Numbered from the stretch's first letter, positions 31,414 to 57,064 are shown. The stretch: DNA of 64,000 nucleotides from Patescibacteria group bacterium (GCA_038064915.1 JBBTSB010000010.1:19809-83808), one strand, 5' to 3'. A program made the numbers and translations. Notes: generated by a model not told the origin, from the letters alone.

Positions 31414-33576
31414 ATGAAATATATTCTCCCCCTGGCTATCTTTTTCGGATTTGCTGCGCATGCTGCGGCCGTCATCAACCCCATCGACGTAGGACTTCGC
31501 GATGGTGACCTCGTTTCTGCGCAAGGTGATGTGGACGTCTTTATTGTCAAAGATGGGGGATACAAGCGTCTTTTCCTCAATGAGGTTATTTTTAGTTTCT
31601 ACGGGCACCTTGGCGGATTTTCCAATATCAAACACATCACCTCAAGTGTGCGAGATGTCTTTACGACCGTTTCAACCTATCGCTACGTAAACGATTCTCG
31701 GATCTTTTGTCTTGAGGTGACGGGAAATGATACGGGAGTACTTCACTGGCTCAATGTCAGCGCAGATCAAGCAGTTGCAGCTGACCCTGACTTTTTTAAA
31801 CATATTTTCACCATCAATGAGCATGAATTTAAATGGTATCCCCAGGCGTTTCCCTATACGTCCGTAGCACAATGCAAAAAACCTGGTGCGTCCACACCCA
31901 CACCCACACCCACACCAACGCCAACTCCCACTCCGACCACAACGCCGAGTGCTACTCCTGCAGGAAATGCAAATCTTTCCCTCAATATCTTTCCTTCATT
32001 TGAAACCACAGGTGTGATCATCACCCTTCCCGCAGGAACCAATGGCAACGAGACTGCAACGCTCTACCTCAAAGGCCCGGGGGACAGTAGTTTTAAAGAA
32101 CAACACCCATTTACGAAGTACGATGCAAACAACATGGCCTCAAGTTTATTCAGTCTCGCGCCCAATACTGCCTATCAACTGCGTGTCGTCTATAGCGATC
32201 CTGATGGCGCAGGTTCTGGTACCAAGGAGGCAAGCTTTACTACGAGGCAAGAGTTTTCGATTCCTGCGGCGTTGCGTGTCGTAAACGTAACCACGACGGC
32301 GACACTACAAGCGGCGATCAATGCGGCGATACCTGGAGACGAAATTCGAGTCGCGGCAGGTACCTACGGCAAAATCACCGTCAATGCCAAAAACGGTACG
32401 GCAAACAATCCGATAGTCATCAAAGGTGCAACATCAACGAAGCCGCTCATCGATGGCATGGCTGCCGGAAGCTCAGCTGTCTTAATCACCAACTCCTCCT
32501 ATCTTGTTTTCGATGGTCTCGATGTGCGTCGAGGCGGAACGTGCAGCAATGATGGTTCCGGATTCCATCTCTTGAAATCAAACCACATTACGCTACAAAA
32601 CAACGCCTTGAGCAACAACGGCGAGCACGATATTTGGCTCGGAGATTATACAGCGACCAATTTTCTCCCTACCGATGGTTATCATCTCATTCAAAACAAT
32701 ACGATATCTGGAGCTACTTGTAGTAAAGCCGAAGGTATCGCCATGTATACCAACAGCGGTAGCAATAATGTCATTCGCAATAACACCATTAGTGGTGGCA
32801 AAGATGGCATGAAACTTGCCGGCGGTGACTCGGCTGGTGGTCCAAGCTCCACCGTTCTCGAAACTACTACTCACGTCCTCAAACTCACGGGCGGTATCTA
32901 CTCTTCTCATGACCATGATGTTTACGGCAATACGATCAGCAATGTCAGAGATGACTTTGTTGAGCTTGATGGCGTCTCGGTGAATATTCGATTCTTCAAT
33001 AATACGTTGAGTGGCAGTACGATCAACGCCATTTCGATTTCCCCAGCTCTGCCCGGACCGCATTTTGTGATTCGCAACAAGGTGTCAGGCACGTGGGGAG
33101 AAGCTGCGGTAAAAATGAACACCAGCGCCGGCAGTTCGACCAACCCCGCGCGCAATGTGTTTTTCTACCACAATACATTCAGCCGCGATACCAGCGGCCA
33201 CTTGCTCAACCTCTGGTACGCCTATCCGGGTGAGCACATTGTCCCCGTCAAAAATATTCAGTTTAAAAATAATATCTTTTGGAATAAAGCTGGTGGACAG
33301 TCTACAGACGTAAAAATCAACACCTGGCCCACGACTCAGCCCACCTTCGACTACAACCTCTGGTACACGTCGTCCACCACGGGAATCTTTGAGTGGTGGG
33401 ATGGCGTGAAGCGCGTCTACAATACCTTTGCAGCTTTCAAAACCGGCAGTGGCCAAGAAGCCAACGGCAAGTTTGGAAATACGGAAAGCGCCGCAATGGA
33501 CGCCGCCGTCCGCATCCACGGCATCAACAATACCTTCACGGGCAGTGCTCCTGATATCGGTGCGGTGGAGTACTAA
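31414..33576 (+). CDS. secreted right-handed beta-helix (pectin-lyase-fold) protein with signal peptide, conserved N-terminal ~140-aa domain and Pro-Thr linker (TPTPTPTPTPTPTTTP)
   Basis: Signal peptide; repeated NNTISG/NNALSNN beta-helix motifs; N-terminal domain shared with 43537..47250. Confidence 0.7.
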   Translation: MKYILPLAIFFGFAAHAAAVINPIDVGLRDGDLVSAQGDVDVFIVKDGGYKRLFLNEVIFSFYGHLGGFSNIKHITSSVRDVFTTVSTYRYVNDSRIFCLEVTGNDTGVLHWLNVSADQAVAADPDFFKHIFTINEHEFKWYPQAFPYTSVAQCKKPGASTPTPTPTPTPTPTPTTTPSATPAGNANLSLNIFPSFETTGVIITLPAGTNGNETATLYLKGPGDSSFKEQHPFTKYDANNMASSLFSLAPNTAYQLRVVYSDPDGAGSGTKEASFTTRQEFSIPAALRVVNVTTTATLQAAINAAIPGDEIRVAAGTYGKITVNAKNGTANNPIVIKGATSTKPLIDGMAAGSSAVLITNSSYLVFDGLDVRRGGTCSNDGSGFHLLKSNHITLQNNALSNNGEHDIWLGDYTATNFLPTDGYHLIQNNTISGATCSKAEGIAMYTNSGSNNVIRNNTISGGKDGMKLAGGDSAGGPSSTVLETTTHVLKLTGGIYSSHDHDVYGNTISNVRDDFVELDGVSVNIRFFNNTLSGSTINAISISPALPGPHFVIRNKVSGTWGEAAVKMNTSAGSSTNPARNVFFYHNTFSRDTSGHLLNLWYAYPGEHIVPVKNIQFKNNIFWNKAGGQSTDVKINTWPTTQPTFDYNLWYTSSTTGIFEWWDGVKRVYNTFAAFKTGSGQEANGKFGNTESAAMDAAVRIHGINNTFTGSAPDIGAVEY

Positions 33577-36170: not shown

Positions 36171-36207
36171 GCGCACGGAACCCCACAGGAGAGATCCCGT
36201 GGGGTGA

Positions 36208-36441
36208 TCAGGGAACGATGTGCCCGCTGACGGCGATACGCCTTATTCTGGCTTTTGCCGCCTGGAAAGCTCTGCGACCATGCCGTTTCACGAATGCCCG
36301 ACAGTTCAGGGCATAGGTGTGCGCGGAGAAACGCACTCTCGCGCATGCAATAGCCGGAGGAATGCGGGCGCATTCAGCGAGGACGGTAATGGTCATCGCT
36401 GGCGAGACGCCGTTGTCGAGTGGCAGGAGAAAGTTCGACAC
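36208..36441 (-). CDS. small GC-rich hypothetical protein (77 aa)
   Basis: AGGAGG SD 6 nt upstream of a GTG start; hairpin CCCCACAGG…CCCGTGGGG downstream. Confidence 0.35.
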   Translation of the reverse strand: MSNFLLPLDNGVSPAMTITVLAECARIPPAIACARVRFSAHTYALNCRAFVKRHGRRAFQAAKARIRRIAVSGHIVP

Positions 36442-36509
36442 GCCGATCCTCCTTTACTCATATTTTATTCTCCTTCCCTTTTTTATGCAATCTGCTAGAC
36501 TCGGGGCAC

Positions 36510-42799: not shown

Positions 42800-42871
42800 G
42801 CGGGTGTGGTTCAATGGTAGAACACGACCTTCCCAAGGTTGAGACGTGGGTCCGATTCCCATCACCCGCTC
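42800..42871 (+). tRNA. tRNA-Gly (anticodon CCC)
   Basis: Cloverleaf GCGGGTG acceptor / CACCCGC; D-arm GTTC..GAAC; anticodon stem CGACC/GGTTG with loop TTCCCAA; T-arm GTGGG-TCCGATT-CCCAT; no encoded CCA. Confidence 0.8.
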
Positions 42872-42900
42872 ACTTGCTCATTGTGGCAGAATTTGCCATA

Positions 42901-43176
42901 ATGGCACAAATGGCAACTGTTCATGAAAAGATTGTGGCAATGCTGGCAACTGTTCAGGAAATGAGGAAAATGCTCAAATCTGGGGAAAAAGCTGATGATA
43001 TTGTTGCGCTTGTGGAGCAGCGATTGCGCATTTCCCAGAAGGACCTTCTGGCCACCTTCCCTCAAATAAGCTCTCGAACCATACGTCGTCGGCTGGACAC
43101 CCTCATTCGGCAGAGTAGGCTTTTGCGTCGCAAAGAGGGGAAGGAAGTCTATTATCTCGCTTATCCACAAAAATGA
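42901..43176 (+). CDS. small winged-helix DNA-binding-like protein (91 aa)
   Basis: ATG 42901 within ORF 42814..43176, whose 5' part would overlap the tRNA. C-terminal …SSRTIRRRLDTLIRQSRLLRRK… looks HTH/wing-like. Confidence 0.4.
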   Translation: MAQMATVHEKIVAMLATVQEMRKMLKSGEKADDIVALVEQRLRISQKDLLATFPQISSRTIRRRLDTLIRQSRLLRRKEGKEVYYLAYPQK

Positions 43177-43536
43177 GCTTGACCGCCGATTTTTATTCTG
43201 TTAGCATCAGTGTCAGATTTGCGGTTAGTGTACGTTATGAATAGGTAGGACAATGCTCAATATCGCATCCATATAACCCAAGGGAAGTTTTTCATTTCGC
43301 TTGGATTTTGTGTGCATAGGTGAGCTTTCGGAGAGAACATTGACAACTAAATACTAGTAGTTAGTTGTTTATGTTTCTTCAGTTGTTCGTCAGAAAATTC
43401 CATGGATTCTCCAAGAGGACCTTGTGTCGGTCGATCATGTCCGCCGAAAGGCGGGCAAGCGGAATTCATGAGATTAATAATTCTCTTCATGCCAGGTCAT
43501 ATGACAAGGCAGTGAGAGATACAGAAAAAATTATTT

Positions 43537-46500
43537 ATGAGTATAGCAACTATCAGAGCAATGTCTTCCAAAAAGACCTTGCTGATCGTAGTCGCCGCGG
43601 CAGCTATCGCTGCAGTCGGAGTATTCTTTGCTCTTCAGCAAGCTGCTCCCACGCAAAGCGTTAGCGCTTTCCAGCCGGGCGACGCCGGTCTTGTAAACGG
43701 GAATCTCATTACTGCCTACAATCAGGCAGGAGACCCCGATGTTTTCGTTATTAAAGAAGTCTATCCTACGGCCACGAAGCGCGTTTTCCAAAACGAAGCG
43801 ATCGGCCGCATGTATGGACAGTTCGGTTATGCGGGTATTTTCACCCCTGGCGTGATCAAGCAAGTTTCCGCATCCACTCGTGATGCGTTTACTCTTGGCT
43901 GCTATGTGAGAAATGCCGAAACGAATGATCCGAAGGTCTACTATCGTAATTCCACGGGTCCCGATACCGCTACGCTCCACTGGGTCAATGTGACCGCAGC
44001 TGAAGCGAATGCCGCAGATTCGATGTTCTTCCCCAAGACATTCGATATCAACAACGCAGAGTTCAACTTCTACGCGCAGGGAGCTGCATACACCAGTATG
44101 TCTCAAATCCCGGCCTGTACGACTGGTGGATCTGCAACTCCAGTACCGGTTCCAGGTGCGGTTTCCGCAAGCCTCTCTCCCGCCAACCCTGCTTCGGCAA
44201 CGGTTACGGGTGGAGCGAGTGGTGTGGAAATGCTCCGTGTCCGCCTGACGGGAACGGGGACACTTAGCACGGTTACCTTCAAGCGCATTGGCGCAGGTTC
44301 CGCGAATGATTTCAGCAATGTATACATCTATGATGGTGCTACCCGCTTGACTTCAGGAAAATCAGTTTCCACGTCAACCGGTGAAACAACCTTCATTAGC
44401 TTGAACATTGCTGTCAACGGTTCGAAAGATCTTTCCCTCGTAGCTGACATTGCTGCCGGACAGACAGCAGGAAACGTAAACGGATTCCAGATAGCTTCCA
44501 TGGGATTGGTTGCCGGTACCGTGACTGGTTTGCCGATTTCCGGCAACCTCTTTACGATGGCCGGAGCTGACAGTGGCATCCTTGATGTCGCGAAAGTGGG
44601 TTCAATCCCCAACCCCGTTGTAGGCCAGAAAGGCGCACAGTTGTCTGAATTTAGACTCACTTCCAACACGGAAGGCTCATGGGTGAAGCGTGTCACTCTC
44701 TTGCAGGGCGGTACGGTCAAGGCCTCTGACATCACCAATGTCAAGATCAAAACCGGTACGACCGAATGGAGCGGTACGGTTACCTCTACCGGCTACCTCG
44801 TCTTCGATATGGGCAGTGGATTCTTCATTGCAAAAGGCGGAGACGCAATCTTCAAGGTCTATGGAGATATGGCAGGCAAGAAGGATGAAGATGTCAATCT
44901 TTACTTCGAATATGCGTCAGATCTATGGGCGGTAGGTGACCAGTTTGGATTCGGTATGAACACCGCATCCGGCACTGCGAACAAAGGTATTGATGCCCTT
45001 GATGCGGCTTCTGAAGCGCACGACGTGACCCTCCAAGGTGGAGCTCTCACGATCGCCTTCAATGGACCGTCCGCAGGGAACATAGGTACCAATACCTCCG
45101 ACACGACCCTCTTGAGAGTATCCATGACTGCAGTTTCGAACATCGAAATCCGCAAGACGGAATTGACTCTCTGTAAGGATCCTGCCGGTGACGGCTCATT
45201 TGGCAATGCCGCAGATACCGACAGCGGTTGGTCAGATATCACCGATATCAAGATGACCGATGAAGCGGCGGGAGGACTTGGTACAGTTCTTGGTCCAGAA
45301 GATGGATCAGCATTTACCACGTCTGATTCCGGCACTTGTGAGGACAGCGTGACCGGAGCTCAAAAGAGCTTCAACAATTCGTTTGTCCTTATGGGCGGAA
45401 AGACCTACAGCTTCAAAGTTACGGGTGATATCAACACTGCAAACACTGATGGTAATGGCGTTGCATTGAGCGCTGCTGATGCGATGCAGCTCTTCCTCGA
45501 CAACTATGCTGATGACACTCCGGATGTGACCATCATGAAATATGATGGTACCAACACGGCAGTTGCGGATGCGGATATTGTTCCGCAATCTGACATCGGC
45601 GGAGGCATCCAGACACTCCAAGCTTCTTCGCTGACGCTTGGTTTGAGCTCGGGTGTTAATGACCAAAGCTTTGTACGTGGCACCCAGGGAATCACGGCAG
45701 TTGGTCTTACCTTCAAGTCGGCGCAAGCTTCAGACATGACGGTGACCGATCTCGTGTTGACAGGGTACTTCTCCGAAGCGGGTTCTACATTCGTAGTCGG
45801 TTCTGATACCACCACGAGTGTTGCGGATCTGGTGAGCGGCGTATCGCTCTATGAAATAGAGTCCAATACGACCATCGCCACGACCCCAACCAGCAACCAG
45901 CTTTCGAACACCACCGGTACGGTGACGTTCAATGGCTTGAACTGGAAAATCCCCGCAGGCGCTACCAAGACGCTTGGCGTAAAAGTCAACCTTGGAAGCA
46001 ATGCACTTGCCGACACCGATTACTTCGCATTCGATATCAACGCGACGACGGATGTCACCGCGCTTGATAAAGATTCGCGTACGGTAAATGCCGGCAACGC
46101 CGATCCAAACAACAGCACCAGCGCTACTACCGTGGTCACCGTCCTCAACTCTGGTTCACTGGCAGTTGCGGTTGCTACGGCAACCACGCCACGTGACCAC
46201 GCAGTCTACTGGGGACAAACCGGTGACTCTGCAGGTGTATGGCGCTTCACGTCAACCAATGAGGCCCAGTACCTAAAGACCCTGCAGTTCGGTGAATACG
46301 ATGCAGGTGGTACCCAGGAAACGGATCTTGCGACCAACGCAAGGACTGTCTACCTTGAGTACAAGAACAAGCTCGGACAGACATTGACAGCCAGCGGAGC
46401 CTTGAGCACTGCGGGAACGACATCATTCGGATTCTCCGATGATGCGACCAGCCCCTACGTACCCAAGGACAGCAGCATGGATGTCACCATCAAGGTTGAC

Positions 46501-47250
46501 TACAAGAACAAGACTGAAGGTGCCTCAACTGGTAAGACCTGGGACTTTGACTTCATCCCCAACACCAGCTCCGGAACTTCAATGTTCAAGGCGATTGGTG
46601 AGGGTTCAGGTGTAGTCATAGATGGTCAGGACACCGGTTTTACGGCGGCAGTCGACCAGGACACAGCAGGTACGGATATCATCATCTACCGTGTGTTCCC
46701 AGAGTTCAAGCTGATTACGCCAACCACGACGAATCTTTCGGTCGTAGATCCGATAGTCTCCTTCACGGTGACTGCCAAGGGTCTTTCCGACTCGAGAGTC
46801 TTCTTCGATGGTACAGCAGCTGGTTCTGGTTCAATCAAGTTCGCGGTGCTCGCCTCCGGGCGTGGCATCACGGCTGATCCGAACTTCACCGTCCGCAAGG
46901 GCGATGGTGTGGTCGTCGACACGGGATCCATCACTGATGCTCCGTTCGCGATCGCTGGACAGCGCGCCAGTATGACTATCGACTTCGGAACCCTGGATGT
47001 GGAAATCACGGGTGGTACTACCCAGACATTCCACGTCTACCTAGATTCGGTTTCAGACTTCAATACACCGGCTCAGTCAAACCCGGCGGTTGCAGCTGAC
47101 TACTTCCAGGTACAGCTCCGAGACGATGAGAACAGTCTGGTCAACTGGGTTGATAGTTCGACGAACTCGTCGAATGACCTCGATACCCAATCAACGTCAG
47201 GGTACTTAATGTACCTGCCGATGAGCGGATATCAGTTCATCGCCCAGTAG
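43537..47250 (+). CDS. 1237-aa secreted Thr/Ser/Gly/Ala-rich, essentially Cys-free, beta-rich surface (S-layer-like) protein; N-terminal ~140-aa domain shared with 31414..33576
   Basis: Signal/anchor sequence; strong compositional bias; long 5' leader; strong terminator downstream. Confidence 0.8.
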   Translation: MSIATIRAMSSKKTLLIVVAAAAIAAVGVFFALQQAAPTQSVSAFQPGDAGLVNGNLITAYNQAGDPDVFVIKEVYPTATKRVFQNEAIGRMYGQFGYAGIFTPGVIKQVSASTRDAFTLGCYVRNAETNDPKVYYRNSTGPDTATLHWVNVTAAEANAADSMFFPKTFDINNAEFNFYAQGAAYTSMSQIPACTTGGSATPVPVPGAVSASLSPANPASATVTGGASGVEMLRVRLTGTGTLSTVTFKRIGAGSANDFSNVYIYDGATRLTSGKSVSTSTGETTFISLNIAVNGSKDLSLVADIAAGQTAGNVNGFQIASMGLVAGTVTGLPISGNLFTMAGADSGILDVAKVGSIPNPVVGQKGAQLSEFRLTSNTEGSWVKRVTLLQGGTVKASDITNVKIKTGTTEWSGTVTSTGYLVFDMGSGFFIAKGGDAIFKVYGDMAGKKDEDVNLYFEYASDLWAVGDQFGFGMNTASGTANKGIDALDAASEAHDVTLQGGALTIAFNGPSAGNIGTNTSDTTLLRVSMTAVSNIEIRKTELTLCKDPAGDGSFGNAADTDSGWSDITDIKMTDEAAGGLGTVLGPEDGSAFTTSDSGTCEDSVTGAQKSFNNSFVLMGGKTYSFKVTGDINTANTDGNGVALSAADAMQLFLDNYADDTPDVTIMKYDGTNTAVADADIVPQSDIGGGIQTLQASSLTLGLSSGVNDQSFVRGTQGITAVGLTFKSAQASDMTVTDLVLTGYFSEAGSTFVVGSDTTTSVADLVSGVSLYEIESNTTIATTPTSNQLSNTTGTVTFNGLNWKIPAGATKTLGVKVNLGSNALADTDYFAFDINATTDVTALDKDSRTVNAGNADPNNSTSATTVVTVLNSGSLAVAVATATTPRDHAVYWGQTGDSAGVWRFTSTNEAQYLKTLQFGEYDAGGTQETDLATNARTVYLEYKNKLGQTLTASGALSTAGTTSFGFSDDATSPYVPKDSSMDVTIKVDYKNKTEGASTGKTWDFDFIPNTSSGTSMFKAIGEGSGVVIDGQDTGFTAAVDQDTAGTDIIIYRVFPEFKLITPTTTNLSVVDPIVSFTVTAKGLSDSRVFFDGTAAGSGSIKFAVLASGRGITADPNFTVRKGDGVVVDTGSITDAPFAIAGQRASMTIDFGTLDVEITGGTTQTFHVYLDSVSDFNTPAQSNPAVAADYFQVQLRDDENSLVNWVDSSTNSSNDLDTQSTSGYLMYLPMSGYQFIAQ

Positions 47251-47257
47251 AGAGTAG

Positions 47258-47298
47258 AATAGGACCTGTAGGACCAATCGGACATATAGGACCTATGG
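47258..47298. repeat. intergenic cluster of ATAGG(A/T)CC palindromic units (…AATAGGACCTGTAGGACC…ATAGGACCTAT…)
   Basis: The palindromic 11-mer ATAGGACCTAT is also seen at 47630..47662 and 52383..52417. Confidence 0.6.
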
Positions 47299-47330
47299 CA
47301 AACCCCCGCTTTGAAAAAAGCGGGGGTTTT
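47299..47330 (+). terminator. Rho-independent terminator AAACCCCCGCTTT-GAAA-AAAGCGGGGGTTTT
   Basis: perfect GC-rich stem plus U-tract. Confidence 0.85.
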
Positions 47331-47347
47331 GCTATGATGGGAAAGCT

Positions 47348-48418
47348 ATGAAACGCATATTTTTGCTACTGATACTTGTCATTTTTGTGGGGGGACTCTT
47401 GATTTGGCAGTCCGAGCGCCGTACAAAGCCTTCCCAGCCTGTACCGCCCGCCGGGTATACCCTTGAAGTCTACGCCCAGAGTTTGGATGATCCGCGGGTG
47501 ATAGCGTTTGATCCCCAGGGACGCATGCTGGTGAGTGAGACCTCCGCCGGACGGGTGACCCTGGTGACTCCGGATCGCAAGGTGCTCCTGGAAGAGCTTG
47601 ACAATCCTCATGGTCTGGCTTTCTATGAAGATAGGTCCGATAGGTCCTATACGACCTATCTGTACGTTGCTACTACACTCGAGGTGGCGCGCTACGCCTA
47701 TGATGTCGCCACTGCTACGGTGGATATTGCCAGCAAGAAAAATATTGTGGATCTTCCCAAAGGCGGCAAGCACTTCATCCGTACGATCGGCTTTGGAAAA
47801 GACTTTCGCGATGCGCCGATCATCGAAGGCTTGTCCCGCGAAAGTTTTTTGAGTCCCATCAAGCTCTATGTGAGTGTCGGTTCATCCTGCGATGCGTGTT
47901 TGGAGAACAGCTGGAAATATGCATCGATTCTGGAGTCTGATTCCAAAGGGACGTATACGGCGGAAGTGGCGGGGGGATTGCGCAACAGCGAATTTTTTAC
48001 CTTCCATCCCACGACAGGGGAACTGTGGGCATCGGAGCAAAGCCGTTCCCGGTTTCCCGATGAAATCAATATCATCAAGCCGCCACTCAAGTACGGCTGG
48101 CCGTACTGCTATGGCAACCAGATGTGGGACACGACGTTTACCGAAACGACCGATCGCACGGACTTGCCGATGGACTGTACAAGAACCGAACCGCCTGTCA
48201 TTGAGCTTCCGGAAAACGCCAATCCCCGTGGCATCGTCTTTTTGTCTCCCACGGAACTCCTCGTGGCCTATCAAGACAAGATCGTGCTTTTTGACGAACA
48301 GCACCAGCCGAGTGACTTTATGAACGGTTCGTTTGCCGATCTCAAGATTGACAGTCATGGCGATCTTTTCATCAGTGATGACAGCGCGGGAATTATTTAC
48401 CGGGTATCGCGTCCGTAA
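47348..48418 (+). CDS. secreted beta-propeller protein, PQQ-dependent sugar dehydrogenase (YliI/sGDH)-like
   Basis: Signal peptide; …FDPQGRMLVSETSAGRV… repeat pattern. Contains the in-frame palindromic repeat encoding EDRSDRSYTTYLY. Confidence 0.55.
   Translation: MKRIFLLLILVIFVGGLLIWQSERRTKPSQPVPPAGYTLEVYAQSLDDPRVIAFDPQGRMLVSETSAGRVTLVTPDRKVLLEELDNPHGLAFYEDRSDRSYTTYLYVATTLEVARYAYDVATATVDIASKKNIVDLPKGGKHFIRTIGFGKDFRDAPIIEGLSRESFLSPIKLYVSVGSSCDACLENSWKYASILESDSKGTYTAEVAGGLRNSEFFTFHPTTGELWASEQSRSRFPDEINIIKPPLKYGWPYCYGNQMWDTTFTETTDRTDLPMDCTRTEPPVIELPENANPRGIVFLSPTELLVAYQDKIVLFDEQHQPSDFMNGSFADLKIDSHGDLFISDDSAGIIYRVSRP
47630..47662. repeat. intragenic in-frame copy of ATAGGTCC/ATAGGTCCTAT palindromic repeat
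   Basis: GATAGGTCCGATAGGTCCTATACGACCTATC inside ORF 47348..48418. Confidence 0.6.
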
Positions 48419-49874
48419 CGCGGTTCTTGCGATACTGCTTGTGTTGGTATTTCTCCAGCCCTTTTTGAGCGCGCGCCGGTTTGGTCCGGTGACGGACGAA
48501 GTACCGCACATCGCCGCCGGCTATTCCTACTGGAAGACGGAGGAAGTCACGCTCAATTCCCAGCATCCTCCGCTGGTCAAACTCCTCGCTACGATCCCCA
48601 TGCTTTTTATGGATATCCGTTTTGATCCTGCCGACATGGCGCTGGGGCAGTGGCTTTTTGGGAGGAAATTTCTCTTTTCAAACGACGTTGATCGAATTCT
48701 CGCCTGGGCTCGCTTGATTCCCATGCTTCTCTCGGTGCTTCTGGGGTACTTCATCTATCGTTGGGCCAGGGAGCTTTTTAAAAATGATTGGGTGGGGATT
48801 TTGGCGCTTGGTATCTATGCGTTCATGCCCCCTATCCTCGCGCATGCCCAATTTGTGACGACGGATCTTGCTGTGGCGGCGTTCAGTTTCATCACCCTGT
48901 ACTTTGTGTGGCGGCGTTCGCTGTGGGCAGGGCTATTTTTGGGGCTGGCGCTTGCGACAAAGTTTTCCGCGCTCGTACTTCTTCCTATTGTTGTCATCGC
49001 GATGGGAGTACGGTGGCGCAAGACGTTGGCGATTCTTGGCATCGCGTTTGCTTTGCTCTATGTGGTATATCTACTTCCCAGCAACCTACACTTCTACCTT
49101 GATGGCTACCGGGCGCTGTATTCTGATCGAAGTCCCGATTACCTCTATTATTTGAACGGCCATTTTTCGGATGACGGGTTTTGGTATTATTTCTTGGAAG
49201 CCTTCCTTATCAAGACGCCAATTCCGTTTTTGATCGGTCTCCTGGGGGCGGTTGTTTATTCCAGTAAGTTCAAATTCAATTGGACAACAAACGTGCTATT
49301 GTGGGGGACTCCCGTGCTGTTTCTACTCGCGACGACGCTCAAGGCTGAGCAAATTGGAGTGCGATATTTATTGCCGATGTATCCGTTTTTGATTGTTTTG
49401 GTGTCGGGTTGGATATTCAAAATTTCAAATTTTAAATTATCATTTTCCATTTTGATTTTTGCATTTTCCATTTGGTACGTCGTTGGCACTGTTCGCATGT
49501 ACCCCGACTATCTTGCGTACTTCAACGAGTCTGTCGGTGGGCCACGCAACGGCTACCGGTATCTCGATGATTCGAATGTGGAATGGGGACAGGATGTAAA
49601 ACGTCTGGCCACGTACCAGCGCGAGCATGCCGGTACCAAGGTCATCTCTCCGTGGGAGGCAATCGACCTGGCATACTACGGAATAGGCGACAACCAGTTT
49701 ACCGCAAGCGGTGAGTGGTGGAAGGACCCGCATGGACGCTACGCGGTGAGCATATTTTATTTGATTCGTGCAAAAGCAGCCGCATTGCGCTATGGAGCTT
49801 CGGAAATTGACTGGCTTTCTCGCTTCCAGCCTGTAGATCGGATCGGCTATTCCTATTTTGTCTACGAATTATGA
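48378..49874 (+). CDS. GT-C membrane glycosyltransferase, GT39/GT83 (PMT/ArnT)-like, no TPR
   Basis: ~11 TM segments; first-loop DE motif (TDEVPHIAAGYSYW). ORF 48333..49874; the start is uncertain and overlaps the upstream gene. Confidence 0.7.
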   Translation: MTARELFTGYRVRNAVLAILLVLVFLQPFLSARRFGPVTDEVPHIAAGYSYWKTEEVTLNSQHPPLVKLLATIPMLFMDIRFDPADMALGQWLFGRKFLFSNDVDRILAWARLIPMLLSVLLGYFIYRWARELFKNDWVGILALGIYAFMPPILAHAQFVTTDLAVAAFSFITLYFVWRRSLWAGLFLGLALATKFSALVLLPIVVIAMGVRWRKTLAILGIAFALLYVVYLLPSNLHFYLDGYRALYSDRSPDYLYYLNGHFSDDGFWYYFLEAFLIKTPIPFLIGLLGAVVYSSKFKFNWTTNVLLWGTPVLFLLATTLKAEQIGVRYLLPMYPFLIVLVSGWIFKISNFKLSFSILIFAFSIWYVVGTVRMYPDYLAYFNESVGGPRNGYRYLDDSNVEWGQDVKRLATYQREHAGTKVISPWEAIDLAYYGIGDNQFTASGEWWKDPHGRYAVSIFYLIRAKAAALRYGASEIDWLSRFQPVDRIGYSYFVYEL

Positions 49875-51487
49875 AATACGCCTTGCTTCTCATCGTGGTC
49901 GTTGCTGCGCTATACGGACAGACGTTTTCATTTGGCTATGTCGGTCTCGATGAAGAAGAGCTCATTGTCCAGCGGCAGGGTTTTTTGCGGAATCCGGCAA
50001 ACATTCCCGTGATATTCACACACGATGTCAGCTATCCCAATAAAACTTCTCCGTACTACCGTCCAATGCTCACCCTATCGTTCATGGCGGATGCCATGAT
50101 CGGCGGTACGAGCAACGTAGTGGCGCACCTTACCAATGTACTCTTGCACATCGTTGCCGTCTTGCTCCTTTGGCGATTTTTTATTGCGCTTGGCATTGAG
50201 AAGTCCAAATCATTTTTTTATTCTCTGATCTTTGCTGTCCATCCTGTTTTCTCCCAAGCTGTCGCATGGGTGCCGGGGAGAAATGACACGCTATTGGCCG
50301 TTTTCGTTCTTTCCTCGTGCATCTTTTTTCTCAAGTCTCTTCGCCTCCGTTCGTGGAAACCGCACGCGGTACACTTTGCTTTGTTTGCGCTCGCGCTGTT
50401 GACCAAGGAAACCGCGGTTGTGGTTCCGATCATCATTATAGGAATATGGCTTTGGTTTTCTGGCGTGCCGTTTTCTTGGCGGCGTTTTTGGAGCTACGCA
50501 GTGCCTTGGATGATTCTTCTTGTTATCTGGTATGCCGTTCGGGCGCATGCACTTTCTTCCATCCCGGGGAAATCTCTGTCCGCAATGTTGTCGCAGATCT
50601 TGGGCTACGCTCCCCAGGTAGTGGTCTACTTGGGAAAAATCATATTACCATTTCAGCTTTCTGTGATGCCTTCCGCAGGGGATAGTGTTATTTGGTTTGG
50701 TTTGGGGGCTCTTATCATTCTGTGTGCCCTGGTATATATCAGCAGGAAATACTTGCGATCTTCACAGGTATTCTTTGGTGCTTGCTGGTTCTTGTCGTTC
50801 TTGGTTCCATCGCTGATCAGCTATGATGATCCGTCCAGGGTGGTATTTTTTGAACATCGGCTTTACCTGCCGCTGATCGGTGTATTGCTCATATTTGCAT
50901 TGCTTCCGGGGAGAGTCTGGAAAATCGGCGCACCCATCCTTGTTGGTTTTGCCGTGCTTGCTTTTTTTCATGTTCGAACATTTCGCAGTGAAATTTCTTT
51001 CTGGGAGCAGGCTGTATCGTCATCACCCAGTATGGCTCGCGCGCGCAACTCTTTGGGAGTTGCCTACGCCAATGCGGGACGCCTCGGAGATGCGTTTCAG
51101 GAATATCAAACCGCGTACCGCATGACCCCGGATGATTATTTGATCAATACCAGTTTGGGGAATGCCTATCGGTTGCGGCGAGAACCGGCGCTTGCCGAAG
51201 AGCACCTCAAAAAAGCTATTTCCATAAATCCTGCCCGCGCGCCAGCGCATCACTACCTGGGATTCCTCTATGCAACACAAAAGCGTTTTTCTGAAGCCGA
51301 GCAGGAATGGTTTCTTGCGCTTCAATACAATTCACAGTACGCTCCACCACATGAAGCTTTGGCGGTATACTATGCACAGGTAGGGCGATTTGAAGAATCC
51401 ATCGTGCACATCCGCGCCATCATGGAACTGGGAGCTCCAGTTCTTCCCGAACTTATGAACATATTGCAGACACATCAACAGCCATGA
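49871..51487 (+). CDS. TMTC/PMT_2-like GT-C membrane glycosyltransferase with C-terminal TPR repeats (paralog 1)
   Basis: ATGA coupling to the upstream gene; DEEE loop motif, YYRP motif, TPR tail. Confidence 0.75.
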   Translation: MKYALLLIVVVAALYGQTFSFGYVGLDEEELIVQRQGFLRNPANIPVIFTHDVSYPNKTSPYYRPMLTLSFMADAMIGGTSNVVAHLTNVLLHIVAVLLLWRFFIALGIEKSKSFFYSLIFAVHPVFSQAVAWVPGRNDTLLAVFVLSSCIFFLKSLRLRSWKPHAVHFALFALALLTKETAVVVPIIIIGIWLWFSGVPFSWRRFWSYAVPWMILLVIWYAVRAHALSSIPGKSLSAMLSQILGYAPQVVVYLGKIILPFQLSVMPSAGDSVIWFGLGALIILCALVYISRKYLRSSQVFFGACWFLSFLVPSLISYDDPSRVVFFEHRLYLPLIGVLLIFALLPGRVWKIGAPILVGFAVLAFFHVRTFRSEISFWEQAVSSSPSMARARNSLGVAYANAGRLGDAFQEYQTAYRMTPDDYLINTSLGNAYRLRREPALAEEHLKKAISINPARAPAHHYLGFLYATQKRFSEAEQEWFLALQYNSQYAPPHEALAVYYAQVGRFEESIVHIRAIMELGAPVLPELMNILQTHQQP

Positions 51488-53169
51488 AGTACGCAGTCAT
51501 CATTCTCATTCTTGTCGGTGCGCTGATCTATGGTTTTAATGTAACCGGCCAGCTTTTGTGGGATGACATCGAATGGATCGCGACCAATCCTTTTGTCCAC
51601 TCGTTTTCGTGGGACAATATCAAACATTGGTTCAGTGGTAATGTTTTGGAGGGAATTGGTCTCTCGAGCAATTACTACCGGCCGTTCCTCTTTGCCACAT
51701 TCACCTTTAACTACGTCATGCACGGCGTACATCCTGTTGGATGGCATGTTGTAAGCAATCTAATTCATATTGCCAACGCCATCCTTCTTGTTTTCCTGTT
51801 GATGCGCCTGTTTGGCAATCGATTTCTTGCTTTTTGGGTTGGTCTGATCTTCCTCGTTCATCCGCTTCAAACCGAGGCGGTGACATACATCTCCGGCCGG
51901 GGGGATCCTCTGGCCGCGCTTTTCATGCTTTCCGCGCTGTTGCTATTCCTTCGGGGCCGGCGTGTTCTCCCGCTTGTTTTTCTTGTACTTGCGCTCTTGA
52001 GTCGAGAAACAGCAATCATGTTTCCGTTCCTCCTGATGATCGTGCTGATCGTGCAGAGTAAAGAGACATTCTGGCGCTCGCTGAAAAAATCTTTTTTTCA
52101 AGCATTGCCGTATGTTGGCGTTGTCACCGCCTATGGCATATTGCGTCTTACGGTGCTGAACTTTGACAACACGCTCAATTTTTTCTCTTCCGCTGTTTCC
52201 AATCCCTACACGCAAAGTGTATTCGTCCGCCTGATTACCTTCTTGAGCATCCTGCCGACCTATGGCCGGCTTCTTCTGGTTCCCCTTGGTCTCCATATGG
52301 ACCGTGCGCCGGCCGTATATACGTCGCTGACGTTCTGGGAAGTGTGGGTGCCCCTGGTGGTGCTTCTGGGGCTCCTGTATGTGACCTATACGACCTATAG
52401 GTCTCATAGGACCTATGCTGGGGTTCTGTTTTTTGGCATTGCATGGTTTTTTGCGGCGATCAGTCCCATGAGCGGCATCACGCCTATCAATGCGATCATG
52501 TACGAGCACTGGCTCTACGTTCCACTCATTGGACCGTTTACGATTATCGTATATTTTCTTTCGCGCATTTCCTACCGCAAAGCGGTCATTGCCGTTCTTG
52601 TATTACTTACGGCTTGGTTTTCGTACCTTGCGATCCAACGCAATAGAATTTGGTCGAATCCAATTGCGCTGTTTGAAGATATCTTGCGCTATGAGCCCAT
52701 GAGTGCGCGGGCGCTGACCAATGCCGCGAACCTCTACTTTGAACAGGGTGATACCGCAATGGCCGAGGCCTACTACCGACGTGCCATCGCCACCAATACC
52801 TCATTTCCCCAAGCTTACTACAATCTTGCTCGGCTCCACCGCGAGCAGGGGAGATACACAGAAACGCTGCCCTTGCTCCGCCGTGCGCTTGATCTGGATC
52901 CAGGTTTTTTCTACGCCTACCAGGAGCTTGCCATCGTTTATGCGCATGAGGGGGATTTCATCCGGTCCCGCGATGCGCTTCTTGCGCTACGCGAACTGCG
53001 TCCTCAAGACCCGCGCGTGTATTTGAATTTGGGCAAAGTTGAACAGGCCCTGGGAAACACTCGTGAGGCGATACGCTGGTTGACTGCAGGATTACCGCTC
53101 TCGGAAAGTGATCTTGAGGCGCACCAGGAAATCCAAGCACTTCTTGACCAACTTGCCAAAAAACGGTAG
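51484..53169 (+). CDS. TMTC/PMT_2-like GT-C glycosyltransferase with C-terminal TPR repeats (paralog 2)
   Basis: ATGA coupling; WDD, YYRP, TPR tail. Contains the in-frame palindromic repeat (VTYTTYRSHRTYA). Confidence 0.75.
   Translation: MKYAVIILILVGALIYGFNVTGQLLWDDIEWIATNPFVHSFSWDNIKHWFSGNVLEGIGLSSNYYRPFLFATFTFNYVMHGVHPVGWHVVSNLIHIANAILLVFLLMRLFGNRFLAFWVGLIFLVHPLQTEAVTYISGRGDPLAALFMLSALLLFLRGRRVLPLVFLVLALLSRETAIMFPFLLMIVLIVQSKETFWRSLKKSFFQALPYVGVVTAYGILRLTVLNFDNTLNFFSSAVSNPYTQSVFVRLITFLSILPTYGRLLLVPLGLHMDRAPAVYTSLTFWEVWVPLVVLLGLLYVTYTTYRSHRTYAGVLFFGIAWFFAAISPMSGITPINAIMYEHWLYVPLIGPFTIIVYFLSRISYRKAVIAVLVLLTAWFSYLAIQRNRIWSNPIALFEDILRYEPMSARALTNAANLYFEQGDTAMAEAYYRRAIATNTSFPQAYYNLARLHREQGRYTETLPLLRRALDLDPGFFYAYQELAIVYAHEGDFIRSRDALLALRELRPQDPRVYLNLGKVEQALGNTREAIRWLTAGLPLSESDLEAHQEIQALLDQLAKKR
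52383..52417. repeat. intragenic in-frame copy of the ATAGGACCTAT palindromic repeat
   Basis: GACCTATACGACCTATAGGTCTCATAGGACCTATG inside ORF 51484..53169. Confidence 0.6.
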
Positions 53170-53185
53170 TCTTGCAGATACTACC

Positions 53186-53692
53186 ATGAAGAAAAACATC
53201 TTATTTGTCCTTATATTAGTGGTTATTATTCTCGGAGGGGCGTTTGTCGTGTGGAACAATAGACAGTCCGCTCAACCGAACCCTTCTCCGTCAAGTAGTG
53301 CTATCGCACCGACGCCCTCTCCCAGCGGGGCGGACATTACCCAGTTTACGAAACCGGCCAGCTGTCAGCTTTCCGGATCCATTGATTTTTTGCAAAAAAA
53401 TATCTTTCGTTCCAACGACGCTCTGTTCCGATATCAGGGCATTGACAATGAGGCGCGTTTGATCACCTGGACGGTCAGTCCAACCGATGAGTTTTCGATC
53501 GGCCCGAACATTTTTGCAAACCTTGATATTCCGGACGGCAGTCGTTCGCTTACGATTTCTCTTCCCGCCGAACCAAAAGCTCGCCAGTATACATTGACCG
53601 CTCGTATCTCCTATGGTCGCTGGGTCAATAACACCGTCGTTGTAAAAGAAGCACGATGCTCCGGTTCAATCCCCGTATATCTTCGCTATTAG
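53186..53692 (+). CDS. small secreted/membrane-anchored hypothetical protein (169 aa)
   Basis: ATG 53186 within ORF 53108..53692; signal peptide MKKNILFVLILVVIILGGAFVVW. Confidence 0.5.
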   Translation: MKKNILFVLILVVIILGGAFVVWNNRQSAQPNPSPSSSAIAPTPSPSGADITQFTKPASCQLSGSIDFLQKNIFRSNDALFRYQGIDNEARLITWTVSPTDEFSIGPNIFANLDIPDGSRSLTISLPAEPKARQYTLTARISYGRWVNNTVVVKEARCSGSIPVYLRY

Positions 53693-55455
53693 CGCTCTCT
53701 GCAAGCCTCATACTATCATTTGCGCTGTTTGGCAACGGCATAAAAGGAGATTATGTTTTTGACGACAAAATAGTCATTCTGGGCAATCCGCATTTGGAAG
53801 AGCGTCCGCCGAGTCTTATAGACATCTTTAGCGATTCCTACCATGCATACCAGCCGACGACCGGTTTGTATCGGCCGCTGACGATCGCAAGCTTTGCACT
53901 GAACACGTATATGTTCGGAACGTCGCCGGTGAGTTTTCATGTGTTCAATATCATCCTCCACGCTCTTGTGGGGTTCATGATCTATGTAATCGTCGGAAGT
54001 CTTGCCGATATGCGCACGGCCGTGGTAAGCGCGCTCCTGTTTCTGTTCCTTCCCATCCATGTCGAAGATGTTACGTCCTTGGTGGGTCGCGCGGAGCTTT
54101 TGGCGCTTTTGTTTTCGCTTGTAGCGCTGTATGCGGTCATGCGCGGAAAGTATCATTGGGGGGCGCTGGCGTTTCTTTTGGGGCTTTTCAGCAAGGAATC
54201 CGCGATCGCATTCATTCCGATTTGGCTTTCCTGGGAATATTTTTTCAACAAACAAACGATTCGCACAATCCTCAAGCGATTTTTGATTATGCTTCCTGCA
54301 ATCAGTATATATGCGGTGCTCCGTTATCTAGCTTTGGGGAAATATGTTCTTGCCAACGATGCCACGGCCGTCTACAATCCGCTCAAATTTGCTCCTTTTT
54401 TTGATACACTGTGGACCAGCGGCAAAATCGCTTTTCTCTATATTCAAAAAATGTTGGTGCCCACGGTTTTTTCTTCGGATTATTCGTTCAACCAGATTCC
54501 CGTCGTCCACAATCCCTTTAGCTCCTGGCAGGCCCTGCTCGGATTGACGATACTCGCGGGACTTGTGTGGATTGCCGTAAAAAAGCGGCGTTCGCTTGTT
54601 GGATGGTCTGCCGTAGTGTTTCTTGCTTTTTATTTCATCATATCAAATCTTATTTTCAAAACCGGTACCATCATGGCGGAGCGTTTGGTATATGCCGCAT
54701 CGCTTGGTCTGGTGATGTTATTGGCGCTGTGTATAGAGCATCTCCGAAAAAAAATCGGTCATGAAAAGGTCATCTATGGCGCTTTGACAATTATGTTGAT
54801 TTTCTATGGATACAAAACTATCAATCGCAATTCTGTTTGGATCAGCGAGGAACGGCTTTTTGCGTCTGCCGTTGTCGTGGCTCCGGAGAGTGTTGTGAAC
54901 CGCACCAACCTTGCCTATCTTCGCTATGTCCAAAAAGATCTTGAGGGCGCAAAGACGGAAAGCGAAGGAGTGTTGGCTATCGCTCCCGACCATGTGCCCG
55001 CTCTCAACCTGGCCGCGCAATCAAACAAAAAGCTTGGCAACCCCAAGGTTGCAGAAGATTACTGGAAGCGTGCCATTGAGCTCCGTCCAGATTATGTCCG
55101 CGGATATTTGGGATTGGGTGTGTTATACTACGAAAATGGTCACTTTCCGGACGCAGAGCTCATTCTTACCAAGGCGGTAAATATTTTCCCGCGCTGGAGT
55201 GAGGTGCTGTTTCTCTCGCTGACCAAAACGGCGCTAAAGAAATACGATGAGGCGATTGCGATTGTTATTCAGCACTTCGGAGAAGATCCGGAGCGACCGG
55301 ACCTCATCTTTGCTCTCGGCGTAGCCTACTACAAAAAAGGCGACCGCGAGCATGCCATGAAGTACCTGCGCAAGGTCCAAAATCCCAACCTTACCCAAGA
55401 GCAATTTTTACAAACCATTGAAAAAAACACTATTTTTCTCATTACTGATCTGTAG
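53656..55455 (+). CDS. TMTC/PMT_2-like GT-C glycosyltransferase with TPR (paralog 3)
   Basis: VFDDKIV, GLYRPL, TPR tail; very similar to paralog 5. Confidence 0.75.
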   Translation: MLRFNPRISSLLALSASLILSFALFGNGIKGDYVFDDKIVILGNPHLEERPPSLIDIFSDSYHAYQPTTGLYRPLTIASFALNTYMFGTSPVSFHVFNIILHALVGFMIYVIVGSLADMRTAVVSALLFLFLPIHVEDVTSLVGRAELLALLFSLVALYAVMRGKYHWGALAFLLGLFSKESAIAFIPIWLSWEYFFNKQTIRTILKRFLIMLPAISIYAVLRYLALGKYVLANDATAVYNPLKFAPFFDTLWTSGKIAFLYIQKMLVPTVFSSDYSFNQIPVVHNPFSSWQALLGLTILAGLVWIAVKKRRSLVGWSAVVFLAFYFIISNLIFKTGTIMAERLVYAASLGLVMLLALCIEHLRKKIGHEKVIYGALTIMLIFYGYKTINRNSVWISEERLFASAVVVAPESVVNRTNLAYLRYVQKDLEGAKTESEGVLAIAPDHVPALNLAAQSNKKLGNPKVAEDYWKRAIELRPDYVRGYLGLGVLYYENGHFPDAELILTKAVNIFPRWSEVLFLSLTKTALKKYDEAIAIVIQHFGEDPERPDLIFALGVAYYKKGDREHAMKYLRKVQNPNLTQEQFLQTIEKNTIFLITDL

Positions 55456-57064
55456 TGCGATTGTAGCGATCTACGCGCAAACGCTGAAGTTTGATTTTGT
55501 GTCCCTGGACGAGGAGGATCACCTTGCCAACCGCCAGTATTTTCTCTCATCAGTAAAAAATATTCCGGAAGCTTTTCAGCACAACACCTACTATCCCAAT
55601 GGAACATCGCAATACTACCGGCCCCTGCACACGATTTCCTTTATGCTCGATGCGATCGGCGACATCACTCCGTCAAAATCCCACGCCATCAACATCGTTC
55701 TCCACATGGGTGCGGCGTTGCTGCTGTTTTGGTTCATGCGGGAGCTGGGGATTGGAAAAACGGCTTCATTTTTTCTCGCACTGCTCTTCGCGGTACACCC
55801 GATCGGCAGTCGAATCGTGGGATGGGTGCCGGGGCGGAATGACGCCACGTTTGCTATATTTGCGATAGCCTCGTGTATCGCGTATCTCCGATGGGTGGCT
55901 CATCCCGAGCGCTGGTGGCTCATGGCGGTGCACCTGGTGCTGTTTTTTGCAGCTTTCTTGAGCAAGGAATTGGGCATCGTTTTGCCTATTCTGTACGTGC
56001 TCATGCCTCGCAATTATGTTGTATCTCGAAAACACGTTGGTCTGGTGGCCGGCGGTTGGATTCTTATCGTCATTTTCTGGTGGCTCATGAGATCCGAAGC
56101 ACTTGCGGGAACGGTTGTTACCGCGTGGAACGATTTGTTGCTGGGACTTTTTCCCAATACCGTTGCCATTCCTTTCTATCTCCAGATTTCTTCGTTGCCG
56201 CTCCATCCGTCCGTTATGCCGACGATGCAGGATGCGCTTCATTGGCTACCCATTGTCGTCAGCGGAGCTTTTATTGCCATACTCATCGTGCTTGGGAAGC
56301 GATTTCAACCCCGCAGTAATTTGCTTCTCTTTGGTATTGCCTGGTTTCTCCTATTTCTTCTTCCTTCTCTTGCGGGGTATGGATCGGATATCCGTCTGGT
56401 GCTATTTGAACACCGAGCCTATGTTCCGCTCATGGGACTGCTGTTTATTGCCGCCGCTTTTCCCTGGGGCCGCATGATTCCTTTCTCCCGTTCCCGTCGC
56501 TTCATCCTTGCGGGAGCTGTAGTTGCCGTGTATGGTGTTTTTGCCTTTTTGGGAACTCGTGATTTTCGGGATGCTTTGACATTTTGGGAAAAAGCAGTAG
56601 CGCAAGCGCCCGACTACGCCGGATCACATAAAGGGCTGGGAACGGTGTATGTCAACAGAGGACGTTTTGATGATGCCGTGAACGAGTTTCAAAAAGCGCT
56701 CGAACTGAATCCGACAGAAAAACGCGTACACAACAACCTCGGCATTATTTACCTGAACCAACGGCGGGTGCAGGAGGCGGAAATGGAATTTCTCTCGGAG
56801 CTTGACGTAAACCCCGGCTATGCGATCACCTACAACAACCTCGGGTTTGTGTACGCCACGCAGAAGCGATTTGCAGACGCGGAAAAAGCATGGCTTACGG
56901 CGCTGGTGTTCGATCCCTGGTATGCCGCTCCGCACCAGGGCCTGGCTATTATCTATGCCATTGCAAACAATAAAGAGCAGTCCTTGGCCCACATTGAGGC
57001 GCTCGTGAAGCTTGGTGCCCCGCTTTCTCCGGATATACAGAAGATCTATGAAAGTTACCGGTAG
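55418..57064 (+). CDS. TMTC/PMT_2-like GT-C glycosyltransferase with TPR (paralog 4)
   Basis: SLDEED, QYYRPL, TPR tail. Confidence 0.75.
   Translation: MKKTLFFSLLICSAIVAIYAQTLKFDFVSLDEEDHLANRQYFLSSVKNIPEAFQHNTYYPNGTSQYYRPLHTISFMLDAIGDITPSKSHAINIVLHMGAALLLFWFMRELGIGKTASFFLALLFAVHPIGSRIVGWVPGRNDATFAIFAIASCIAYLRWVAHPERWWLMAVHLVLFFAAFLSKELGIVLPILYVLMPRNYVVSRKHVGLVAGGWILIVIFWWLMRSEALAGTVVTAWNDLLLGLFPNTVAIPFYLQISSLPLHPSVMPTMQDALHWLPIVVSGAFIAILIVLGKRFQPRSNLLLFGIAWFLLFLLPSLAGYGSDIRLVLFEHRAYVPLMGLLFIAAAFPWGRMIPFSRSRRFILAGAVVAVYGVFAFLGTRDFRDALTFWEKAVAQAPDYAGSHKGLGTVYVNRGRFDDAVNEFQKALELNPTEKRVHNNLGIIYLNQRRVQEAEMEFLSELDVNPGYAITYNNLGFVYATQKRFADAEKAWLTALVFDPWYAAPHQGLAIIYAIANNKEQSLAHIEALVKLGAPLSPDIQKIYESYR

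Follow-up and report, generated by a model that had tools for sequence, protein, structure and literature searches.

In monoderm bacteria, the textbook layout of a surface-layer (S-layer) protein consists of a signal peptide, SLH domains, and lattice domains, as in Sap of Bacillus anthracis and SpaA of Paenibacillus alvei. SLH (PF00395) and PG_binding_1 (PF01471) are established wall-binding modules. The slpA genes of Lactobacillus and Thermus thermophilus, very highly expressed surface-protein genes, possess a long untranslated leader with stable hairpins. We analyzed a stretch of 64,000 nucleotides (nt) from a Patescibacteria group bacterium (GCA_038064915.1, JBBTSB010000010.1:19809-83808; hereafter, the window), which contains a gene for a putative surface protein of 1237 amino acids (aa). 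Its N-terminal module, designated here as the N-domain, recurs in a second protein of the window. An original prediction, made from the DNA alone, had described the product as S-layer-like.

In Patescibacteria, the closest described system is a putative S-layer protein found with SymProFold in a scan of a Nealsonbacteria genome (10.1101/2024.05.28.596244). Proteins of this family are 1131-1274 aa long and have six immunoglobulin (Ig)-like assembly domains and a PG_binding_1 anchor; examples are A0A1G2EN61 from Nealsonbacteria (1131 aa) and GMX59286.1 from Parcubacteria (1185 aa), in addition to A0A1F5NRV7 and A0A0G1WWP5 (10.1101/2024.05.28.596244). The protein is predicted to form hexagonal pyramids, and lattice models exist for presumed homologues (10.1101/2024.05.28.596244). 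In two Paceibacteria, homologues are reported to rank within the top five signal-peptide genes by expression (10.1101/2024.05.28.596244; PMC10936435).

In this study, we compared the surface protein, its N-domain, and the flanking non-coding DNA with their counterparts in other genomes. The explanation that we favor, and hold with some confidence, is that the product serves as the S-layer protein of a Yanofskybacteria-related groundwater patescibacterium, with the N-domain anchoring it to the wall, and that the gene is expressed as a stand-alone unit.

Surface protein and its homologues

The surface protein is encoded by the open reading frame (ORF) 43537-47250 on the plus strand, and the first ATG is taken as the start because orthologues share the N-terminus MSIA.... 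An identical protein, MEK7616294.1, is recorded as a 'hypothetical protein' of a Patescibacteria metagenome-assembled genome, and the contig carrying the gene is also contained in Hainich groundwater 0.1-µm-filter assemblies. The composition of the product (T 12.4, A 11.0, G 10.6, S 9.1, V 8.2, D 7.4, N 5.3, and C 0.3%) bears out the Thr/Ser/Gly/Ala/Asp/Asn bias and the near-absence of Cys pointed out originally; the four Cys residues are at positions 122, 194, 546, and 601. With a pI of 4.3, the mature protein (~124 kDa) is acidic, and no Pfam or NCBIfam family matched it. An A-x-A or V-x-A motif is kept directly before the N-domain in orthologues, and the V-S-A/F sequence is probably the signal-peptidase site.

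The AlphaFold model of the mature protein has a mean predicted local distance difference test (pLDDT) score of 88.4 and is all-beta beyond the N-domain. The region downstream of the linker (hereafter, the body) is predicted to be the lattice-forming part and comprises roughly 6-8 domains, a count that is uncertain. These domains are strongly diverged, and profile self-comparison revealed faint repeats, with matches of only 50-80% probability among residues ~170-300, 660-810, and 1075-1175 and between residues ~300-405 and 829-948 (mature numbering). Of the repetitive beta modules proposed earlier, the beta structure was thus reproduced in the model, whereas the repetition was recovered only at this level.

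With residues 196-1237 as the query, 199 homologues were found, nearly all of which are 1150-1310 aa long and 43-69% identical; their named sources are Yanofskybacteria, Nomurabacteria, Taylorbacteria, Paceibacterota, or 'Patescibacteria group'. When one genome per species was scanned, body homologues were recovered at 79 loci, which span Yanofskybacteria, Jorgensenbacteria, Komeilibacteria, Doudnabacteria, Peregrinibacteria, and Microgenomates, the last five being the sources of ~30%-identical relatives. The accessions obtained from a cluster look-up of the family include MEK7616294.1, A0A0G1NPY5, and A0A1F8EYU0.

This family resembles the one found with SymProFold in size, in the presence of a probable signal peptide, in the order of a putative N-terminal anchor module and an Ig-like array, and in its spread over patescibacterial classes. 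Its members are 1148-1310 aa long and all-beta, include PG_binding_1 variants, and occur in Doudnabacteria, Jorgensenbacteria, and others, in accordance with the published description. The surface protein differs in having the uncharacterized N-domain, which is not among the anchors listed in 10.1101/2024.05.28.596244, in place of PG_binding_1, and our uncertain estimate of 6-8 domains compares with six in that study. Since the PG_binding_1 variants (1148-1218 aa) fit the description closely, we regard the surface protein as a family member with a different anchor, and it very probably belongs there, judging from length, taxonomy, architecture, and the PG_binding_1 variant.

Exchange of modules ahead of the body

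The start of the body, 'VSLASDNPA', is conserved in every homologue after a Pro/Thr-rich linker, and the segment between the signal peptide and this motif varies by lineage. The N-domain occupies this segment in 105 of the 120 listed homologues (106 rows lay above the cut-off, one of which was a weak second hit). In 13 of the 120 (1148-1218 aa), it is replaced by a coiled coil and PG_binding_1, an arrangement that can also be read from the sequences of Jorgensenbacteria and other loci. Homologues from Peregrinibacteria and Peribacteria have three N-terminal SLH domains (E=2e-41 to 3e-9), and one Microgenomates locus has an NBR1-like Ig domain in the same slot. In Komeilibacteria-like loci, the slot is occupied by an 'AGDLIK...VYY..DGKRY.FP' module, and comparison with the N-domain by hhalign (probability 95%, E=1.8e-8, 127 columns) shows it, at the level of sequence profiles, to be a distant relative of the N-domain. 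The N-terminal module of Doudnabacteria (L077 and L078) reached a probability of 15-37% only, and we do not claim it as a relative.

The surface protein itself gave no SLH match at E<=1, and PG_binding_1 matched neither the surface protein nor the second protein with an N-domain. The slot of the N-domain is one that holds SLH, PG_binding_1, or a distant N-domain relative in homologues, which argues for a cell-wall anchor, and we predict that the N-domain has this function. The earlier suggestions of an S-layer-like protein and of an envelope-anchoring module of unassigned family are both strengthened by these observations: a patescibacterial family of ~1200 aa carries SLH (E to 2e-41) or PG_binding_1 in the position in which the surface protein has a promiscuous domain without a database match.

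SLH-anchored S-layer proteins, such as Sap and SpaA, are another close known system. The predicted order of signal peptide, N-terminal wall-anchoring module, and lattice domains is shared, as are the acidic and Cys-poor composition and the monocistronic gene with a long leader and a strong terminator, and the body homologues of Peregrinibacteria carry three genuine SLH domains. The surface protein differs in lacking SLH, and its N-domain is mixed alpha/beta rather than having the three-helix arrangement of SLH.

The N-domain family

The second N-domain belongs to a 720-aa beta-helix protein, in which it is followed by a (PT)n linker and a right-handed beta-helix that matches Beta_helix, NosD, and Chondroitinase_B at residues ~290-510. 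The two N-domains share 60 of 146 residues (41%; BLASTP, E=2e-25; residues 46-191 vs 22-154), so that the N-terminal homology noticed originally is significant in a proper alignment. A tblastn search found no third copy in the window, and no further N-domain genes adjoin the orthologues within the loci examined.

The N-domain matched no Pfam or NCBIfam family and no PDB sequence; the similarity does not dissolve into a known, unrelated family. Searched exhaustively as a separate profile against 1.84 billion representative proteins, as the original prediction had suggested, the N-domain was recovered in at least 802 protein clusters at E<=1e-3, 252 of which reached E<=1e-30. Carriers with a named source are all patescibacterial. 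A word-indexed search with the 160-aa N-domain alone gave a false negative, missing even the identical protein P0001, so that a negative from such an index is unreliable for a short single query; the exhaustive search and a profile query recovered hundreds of homologues that the word index had missed. PF27154 and PF27854, which are listed for three carriers, are too rare among carriers to represent the N-domain. It appears to be an undescribed domain that is widespread in Patescibacteria.

Carriers of the N-domain are between 130 and 1362 aa long. Among the sequences examined, it occupies the N-terminus of 223, the C-terminus of 47, and the middle of 4, and it stands alone in 89, a group that contains many fragments. 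In 146 carriers, the partners include fn3, Kre9-type Ig, PKD, TIG, cohesin, Laminin_G_3, carboxypeptidase-regulatory, subtilase, GH99, PHB esterase, prolyl oligopeptidase, Kazal inhibitor, beta-helix, SH3_3, and PG_binding_1 domains, which are typical of extracellular proteins. Phage lysins were considered as carriers; however, none was found in IMG/VR contigs, and BFVD contained no credible structural match.

Among 305 distinct copies, Cys occurs solely as one of three mutually exclusive pairs of alignment columns: (80,123) in 234 copies; (75,147) in 7, among them the surface protein, in which these columns are C122/C194; and (89,144) in 5, including the beta-helix protein. The remaining 59 copies have no Cys, and a single Cys was never found. 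This perfect covariation is strong evidence that the pairs form alternative disulfides and hence that the N-domain is an extracytoplasmic folded domain; in the surface protein, a Cys122-Cys194 disulfide is probable. The invariant or near-invariant residues are DPD, KR, Y, GH, RD, E, HW, and N..E, and these conserved charged and aromatic residues are of the kind expected of a glycan-binding surface, which the N-domain may therefore possess.

The N-domain has a mixed alpha/beta fold, and its best structural neighbors, which are weak, are PlyCB and the EccB1 repeat (PDB 4f87 and 3x3m). These modules are small beta-hairpin-plus-helix units in the cell envelope, and the streptococcal wall is the target of PlyCB (PMC4769845). 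Secondary structures follow one another in the same order in both halves of the N-domain, but hhalign of half against half gave a probability of 1.7%, and we do not claim an internal duplication.

Weighing the S-layer assignment

According to the explanation that we favor, the Sec signal peptide would be removed, and the N-domain of ~145 residues would hold the surface protein non-covalently on the wall by binding peptidoglycan or a wall-linked glycopolymer. Beyond the Pro/Thr linker, the Ig-like beta-sandwich array would form the exposed lattice. The N-domain would then be a portable address tag, which would place the beta-helix enzyme (31414-33576) and hundreds of secreted patescibacterial proteins on the wall. 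The gene itself would be a stand-alone and probably strongly expressed unit that has its own sigma-70-like promoter, a structured 5' untranslated region (UTR) of ~320 nt, a hairpin before the start codon, and a strong intrinsic terminator. That the product may be abundant, as expected of an S-layer protein, is suggested indirectly by the conservation of promoter, leader, and terminator and by the high expression of homologues with PG-binding domains (PMC10936435).

Several points weigh against this explanation. Foldseek searches of the PDB with the surface protein returned generic Ig-like/MG arrays only (PrgB, mastigoneme, complement/alpha-2-macroglobulin, and integrins), with TM-scores of ~0.1 and identities of 7-12%; the body thus resembles Ig arrays in general and not specifically S-layer proteins. 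The link to the SymProFold family, which we consider very probable, was drawn from shared features. In one Yanofskybacteria genome, a shorter protein with three domains is used in its place, and this shorter type may account for the 13-nm lattice observed by cryo-EM (10.1101/2024.05.28.596244). All functional statements on the surface protein and the N-domain are computational predictions.

The surface protein might be a host-attachment adhesin rather than a lattice protein, in which case the N-domain, like PG_binding_1 of the relatives, would bind the wall of the host of an episymbiont. Highly expressed proteins with PG-binding domains have been described as possibly involved in host attachment (Kuroda et al., PMC10936435), and Ig-like arrays are common in adhesins, one of which, PrgB, is among the top Foldseek matches. 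However, the anchor adjoins the signal peptide, which is the cell-proximal end in the published model, and the SLH domains of the Peregrinibacteria homologues would bind wall polymers of the producer itself, as is established for SLH. The length and domain order are nearly constant over the 199 homologues, unlike those of repeat-variable adhesins, and the N-domain also accompanies enzymes and inhibitors for which a part in adhesion is not apparent. We therefore consider an adhesin rather unlikely.

A role other than anchoring for the N-domain, such as oligomerization, nucleation of the lattice, or secretion/quality control, seems more improbable still. The protein would then be retained by an uncleaved N-terminal membrane helix; cleavage of the signal peptide is itself a prediction, the hydrophobic residues 14-33 could act as a membrane anchor, and the similar secondary structure of the two halves of the N-domain is reminiscent of some oligomerizing modules. 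Nevertheless, A-x-A-type cleavage motifs are conserved directly before the domain, and two bona fide wall-binding modules are interchangeable with it at the same junction. A lattice-specific role also does not fit a domain that is C-terminal in 47 proteins and has many unrelated partners. Finally, the alpha-2-macroglobulin, complement, and integrin Ig/MG arrays among the Foldseek matches would allow the body to be a non-lattice protective or binding protein that decorates the wall, like MG-domain proteins, but we judge this very improbable in view of the low TM-scores and identities, the presence of only four Cys residues, the lack of a thioester CGEQ motif and a bait region as read from the sequence, and the absence of a match between the body profile and the sequence of any PDB chain.

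Leader of the surface-protein gene

The structured upstream region of ~360 nt proposed originally was supported: the leader folds with -117.6 kcal/mol, compared with -89.0 kcal/mol for shuffled sequences (z=-5.15), and a long leader is conserved in orthologues. At 33 orthologue loci, the median distance between the start codon and the end of the closest preceding ORF (100 aa or longer) is 662 nt. Rfam gave nothing credible in 42870-43560 at E<=5, and its matches in the whole window were RNase P and a tRNA only.

The leader was aligned with those of the three closest relatives (L080, L004, and L023). TTGAC, a spacer of 17-18 nt, and TGnTAnnAT are kept in all four leaders, and the promoter-like site at this position (Table 1) would give a 5' UTR of roughly 320 nt. 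The TTGACA box in the original prediction is present, and the block that contains it is conserved in the alignment as AGAACnTTGACAAC, but none of the four relatives has a -10 element suitably spaced from it, and we rejected it as a -35 box in favor of the upstream pair. Other conserved pieces of the leader are GGTCGATCATG and CAGGTC..A.GACAAGG. The CCGCC-GAAA-GGCGG hairpin noticed in the same prediction also exists in the window; however, it is missing from L080 and L023 and was not retained as a functional element, the conserved RNA structure being another hairpin, HP-2.

HP-2 has a variable stem of ~13 bp and an apical GGUC-N4-GACA. In an alignment of 15 loci, which was anchored on the loop only, 88.3% of the cells pair, compared with 42-49% in slid registers, and 11 of the 16 pairs show compensatory changes. 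The covariation score of 0.657 exceeds that of shuffled alignments (0.24) and was reached by 0 of 500 shuffles. When a covariance model was run on 1.0 Mb (the window and loci), all of its matches fell at this position ahead of the orthologous gene; besides the window, 20 loci were matched. Five of these were outside the seed (L040, L042, L045, L047, and L081), L081 being a second contig with the same gene as the seed locus L080. No HP-2 was found ahead of the gene at 31414, which encodes the second N-domain. These features make HP-2 a candidate for a new, gene-specific cis-regulatory RNA that is absent from Rfam.

A second element of the leaders is GGTCGA(A/T). In the 420 nt upstream of 38 genes (loci L001-L044 and L080), GGTCGA is the most widely shared hexamer, present in 35 leaders, and occurs 47 times against about 4 expected. 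Its density is 2.59 per kb in leaders and 0.057 per kb elsewhere in the same loci, a 45-fold difference. The motif lies in hairpin loops more often than controls (mean enclosing pairs, 10.2 vs 6.4; p=4e-7), usually on the 5' side of the loop, and the stem sequence differs between genomes. The window contains 8 copies against 17.9 expected, only one of which is in the leader of the surface-protein gene. In a sub-clade (L016, L022, L028, and L043), two copies are ~36 nt apart; in L016, L028, and L043, both copies lie within a longer domain, which GTCTTAA(A)...(T)TTAAGAC closes.

The leader is similar to those of the slpA genes in being long and in having stable hairpins ahead of a surface-protein gene. 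It differs in having elements of its own, namely GGUCGA(A/U) loops and the covarying GGUC-N4-GACA hairpin, none of which is in Rfam.

Terminator and neighboring genes

The strong terminator proposed earlier was found as well: its stem pairs CCCCCGC (47303-47309) with GCGGGGG (47320-47326) and is followed by TTTT, and comparable terminators lie 20-110 nt past the stop codon in 32 of the 36 orthologue loci. Between the stop codon and the terminator (47259-47296), TAGGACC occurs three times (47260, 47269, and 47287), and this segment folds into a second hairpin.

Downstream, a gene for a GSDH-like beta-propeller (47348-48418), whose homologue is downstream in 16 orthologue loci, precedes six tandem GT-C glycosyltransferase genes. 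Only the first of the six matches PMT_2/PMT; the other five were assigned by their size and by tblastn similarity to each other's homologues. The GT-C array, whose co-occurrence the original prediction had proposed to check, recurs: in about 36 of the loci L001-L051, homologues of these genes follow the orthologous gene. With protein-mannosyltransferase-like enzymes encoded beside a Thr/Ser-rich coat protein, the coat may be glycosylated or the anchor ligand may be synthesized by them, and the GT-C enzymes are candidates for glycosylating the surface protein or for building the wall polymer bound by the anchor.

Directly upstream of the leader is a small winged-helix-like ORF, the product of which is possibly a regulator. 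L004 has a 46%-identical ORF, and the ORFs in the same position of L080 and L081 have a weak Penicillinase_R match; the distance of ~350 nt to the coat gene is kept in all three. A tRNA-Gly(CCC) (42800-42871) overlaps the 5' end of a listed 120-aa ORF (42814-43176), whose real product is probably the winged-helix protein of ~91 aa that starts near 42901. Only the closest relatives share the upstream synteny, which comprises DUF4012, LepA, DivIC, tRNA-Gly(CCC), and the winged-helix ORF.

Between the two N-domain genes, the region 34785-40122 encodes a phosphoglycosyl transferase (Bac_transf), a GT4 glycosyltransferase, and a DUF4012 protein, which look like a cluster for surface-glycan synthesis. 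A class A RNase P RNA (34317-34726, minus strand; 143.9 bits) shows the overlapping listed ORFs, e.g., 34424-34798, to be spurious. At many Yanofskybacteria loci (L003, L008-L012, L019, L026, L029, L032, and L044), a giant secreted protein (1042-1369 aa) is encoded upstream of the coat gene; these proteins share a conserved 'Y(S/D)Q..THPALT...HFYDP' start and have no N-domain. They were considered as paralogs of the coat protein and turned out to be an unrelated family, with the 'THPALT' motif at the start. Third Party Annotation (TPA) titles of many loci (L005-L007, L015, L019, L022, L055, L058, L068, and others) read 'uncultured Candidatus Saccharibacteria' or 'Gammaproteobacteria'; these labels look unreliable for contigs with this Parcubacteria-type gene.

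Table 1. Features of the surface-protein locus and related elements in the window
Feature	Position	Strand	Description	Basis
Second N-domain copy	31477..31875	+	Residues 22-154 of the 720-aa beta-helix protein (ORF 31414-33576)	
Winged-helix-like ORF	42901..43176	+	~91 aa, directly upstream of the leader	Weak HTH_DeoR match, E 0.009
Non-coding leader	43177..43536	+	360 nt, upstream of the surface-protein gene	
Promoter-like site	43179..43207	+	-35 TTGACC, 17-nt spacer, TG-extended -10 TAGCAT (43202-43207)	Consensus scan
Conserved leader block	43333..43347	+	AGAACATTGACAAC, contains TTGACA (43339-43344)	
GGTCGAT	43429..43435	+	Window copy of the GGTCGA(A/T) leader motif	
CCGCC-GAAA-GGCGG hairpin	43441..43454	+		Present in the window
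HP-2	43482..43519	+	Conserved leader hairpin, ~13-bp variable stem, apical GGUC-N4-GACA	Ends 17 nt before the start codon
Predicted signal peptide	43537..43668	+	Residues 1-44	Basic n-region (KK), 19-residue hydrophobic core, V-S-A then F; read from sequence
N-domain	43672..44109	+	N-terminal module, residues 46-191, predicted wall anchor	
Pro/Thr-rich linker	44110..44148	+	IPACTTGGSATPV...	pLDDT <50 at mature residues 160-167; module-swap junction in homologues
Body	44149..47250	+	All-beta array, roughly 6-8 Ig-like beta-sandwich domains, stop codon included	AlphaFold, Foldseek, homologues
Intrinsic terminator	47298..47334	+	GC stem extended by A-U pairs, then T run	Sequence and fold
GT-C genes	48333..58805	+	Six tandem GT-C/PMT_2-like membrane glycosyltransferase genes	Downstream of the surface-protein gene

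Implications

The surface protein very probably adds a new member to a family for which a role as the patescibacterial S-layer protein has already been proposed on computational grounds, and both the N-domain and the leader hairpin appear to be undescribed. Only tentatively, we propose a further-reaching scheme, in which the N-domain would be a Patescibacteria-specific means of wall targeting like SLH or CWB2 and would bind a lineage-specific glycopolymer made by the GT-C/PMT-like array. In the same scheme, the leader RNA, with its GGUCGA loops and the GGUC-N4-GACA hairpin, would be bound by a protein, possibly the S-layer protein or the winged-helix protein, which would match coat synthesis to growth.

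Patescibacteria constitute a large share of bacterial diversity, and their cell envelope is almost unknown at the molecular level. The leader hairpin is a candidate for a new regulatory RNA in a phylum whose regulation has barely been explored. The swap of SLH, PG_binding_1, and the N-domain on one conserved coat protein is a natural experiment that relates anchors to wall chemistry. If the N-domain is indeed a wall anchor, it would provide a handle for finding the wall polymer to which it binds and a display or labeling tool for uncultured cells, and it would serve as a sequence tag for the wall-displayed proteome of many of these bacteria, including enzymes, inhibitors, lectin-like domains, and the coat.

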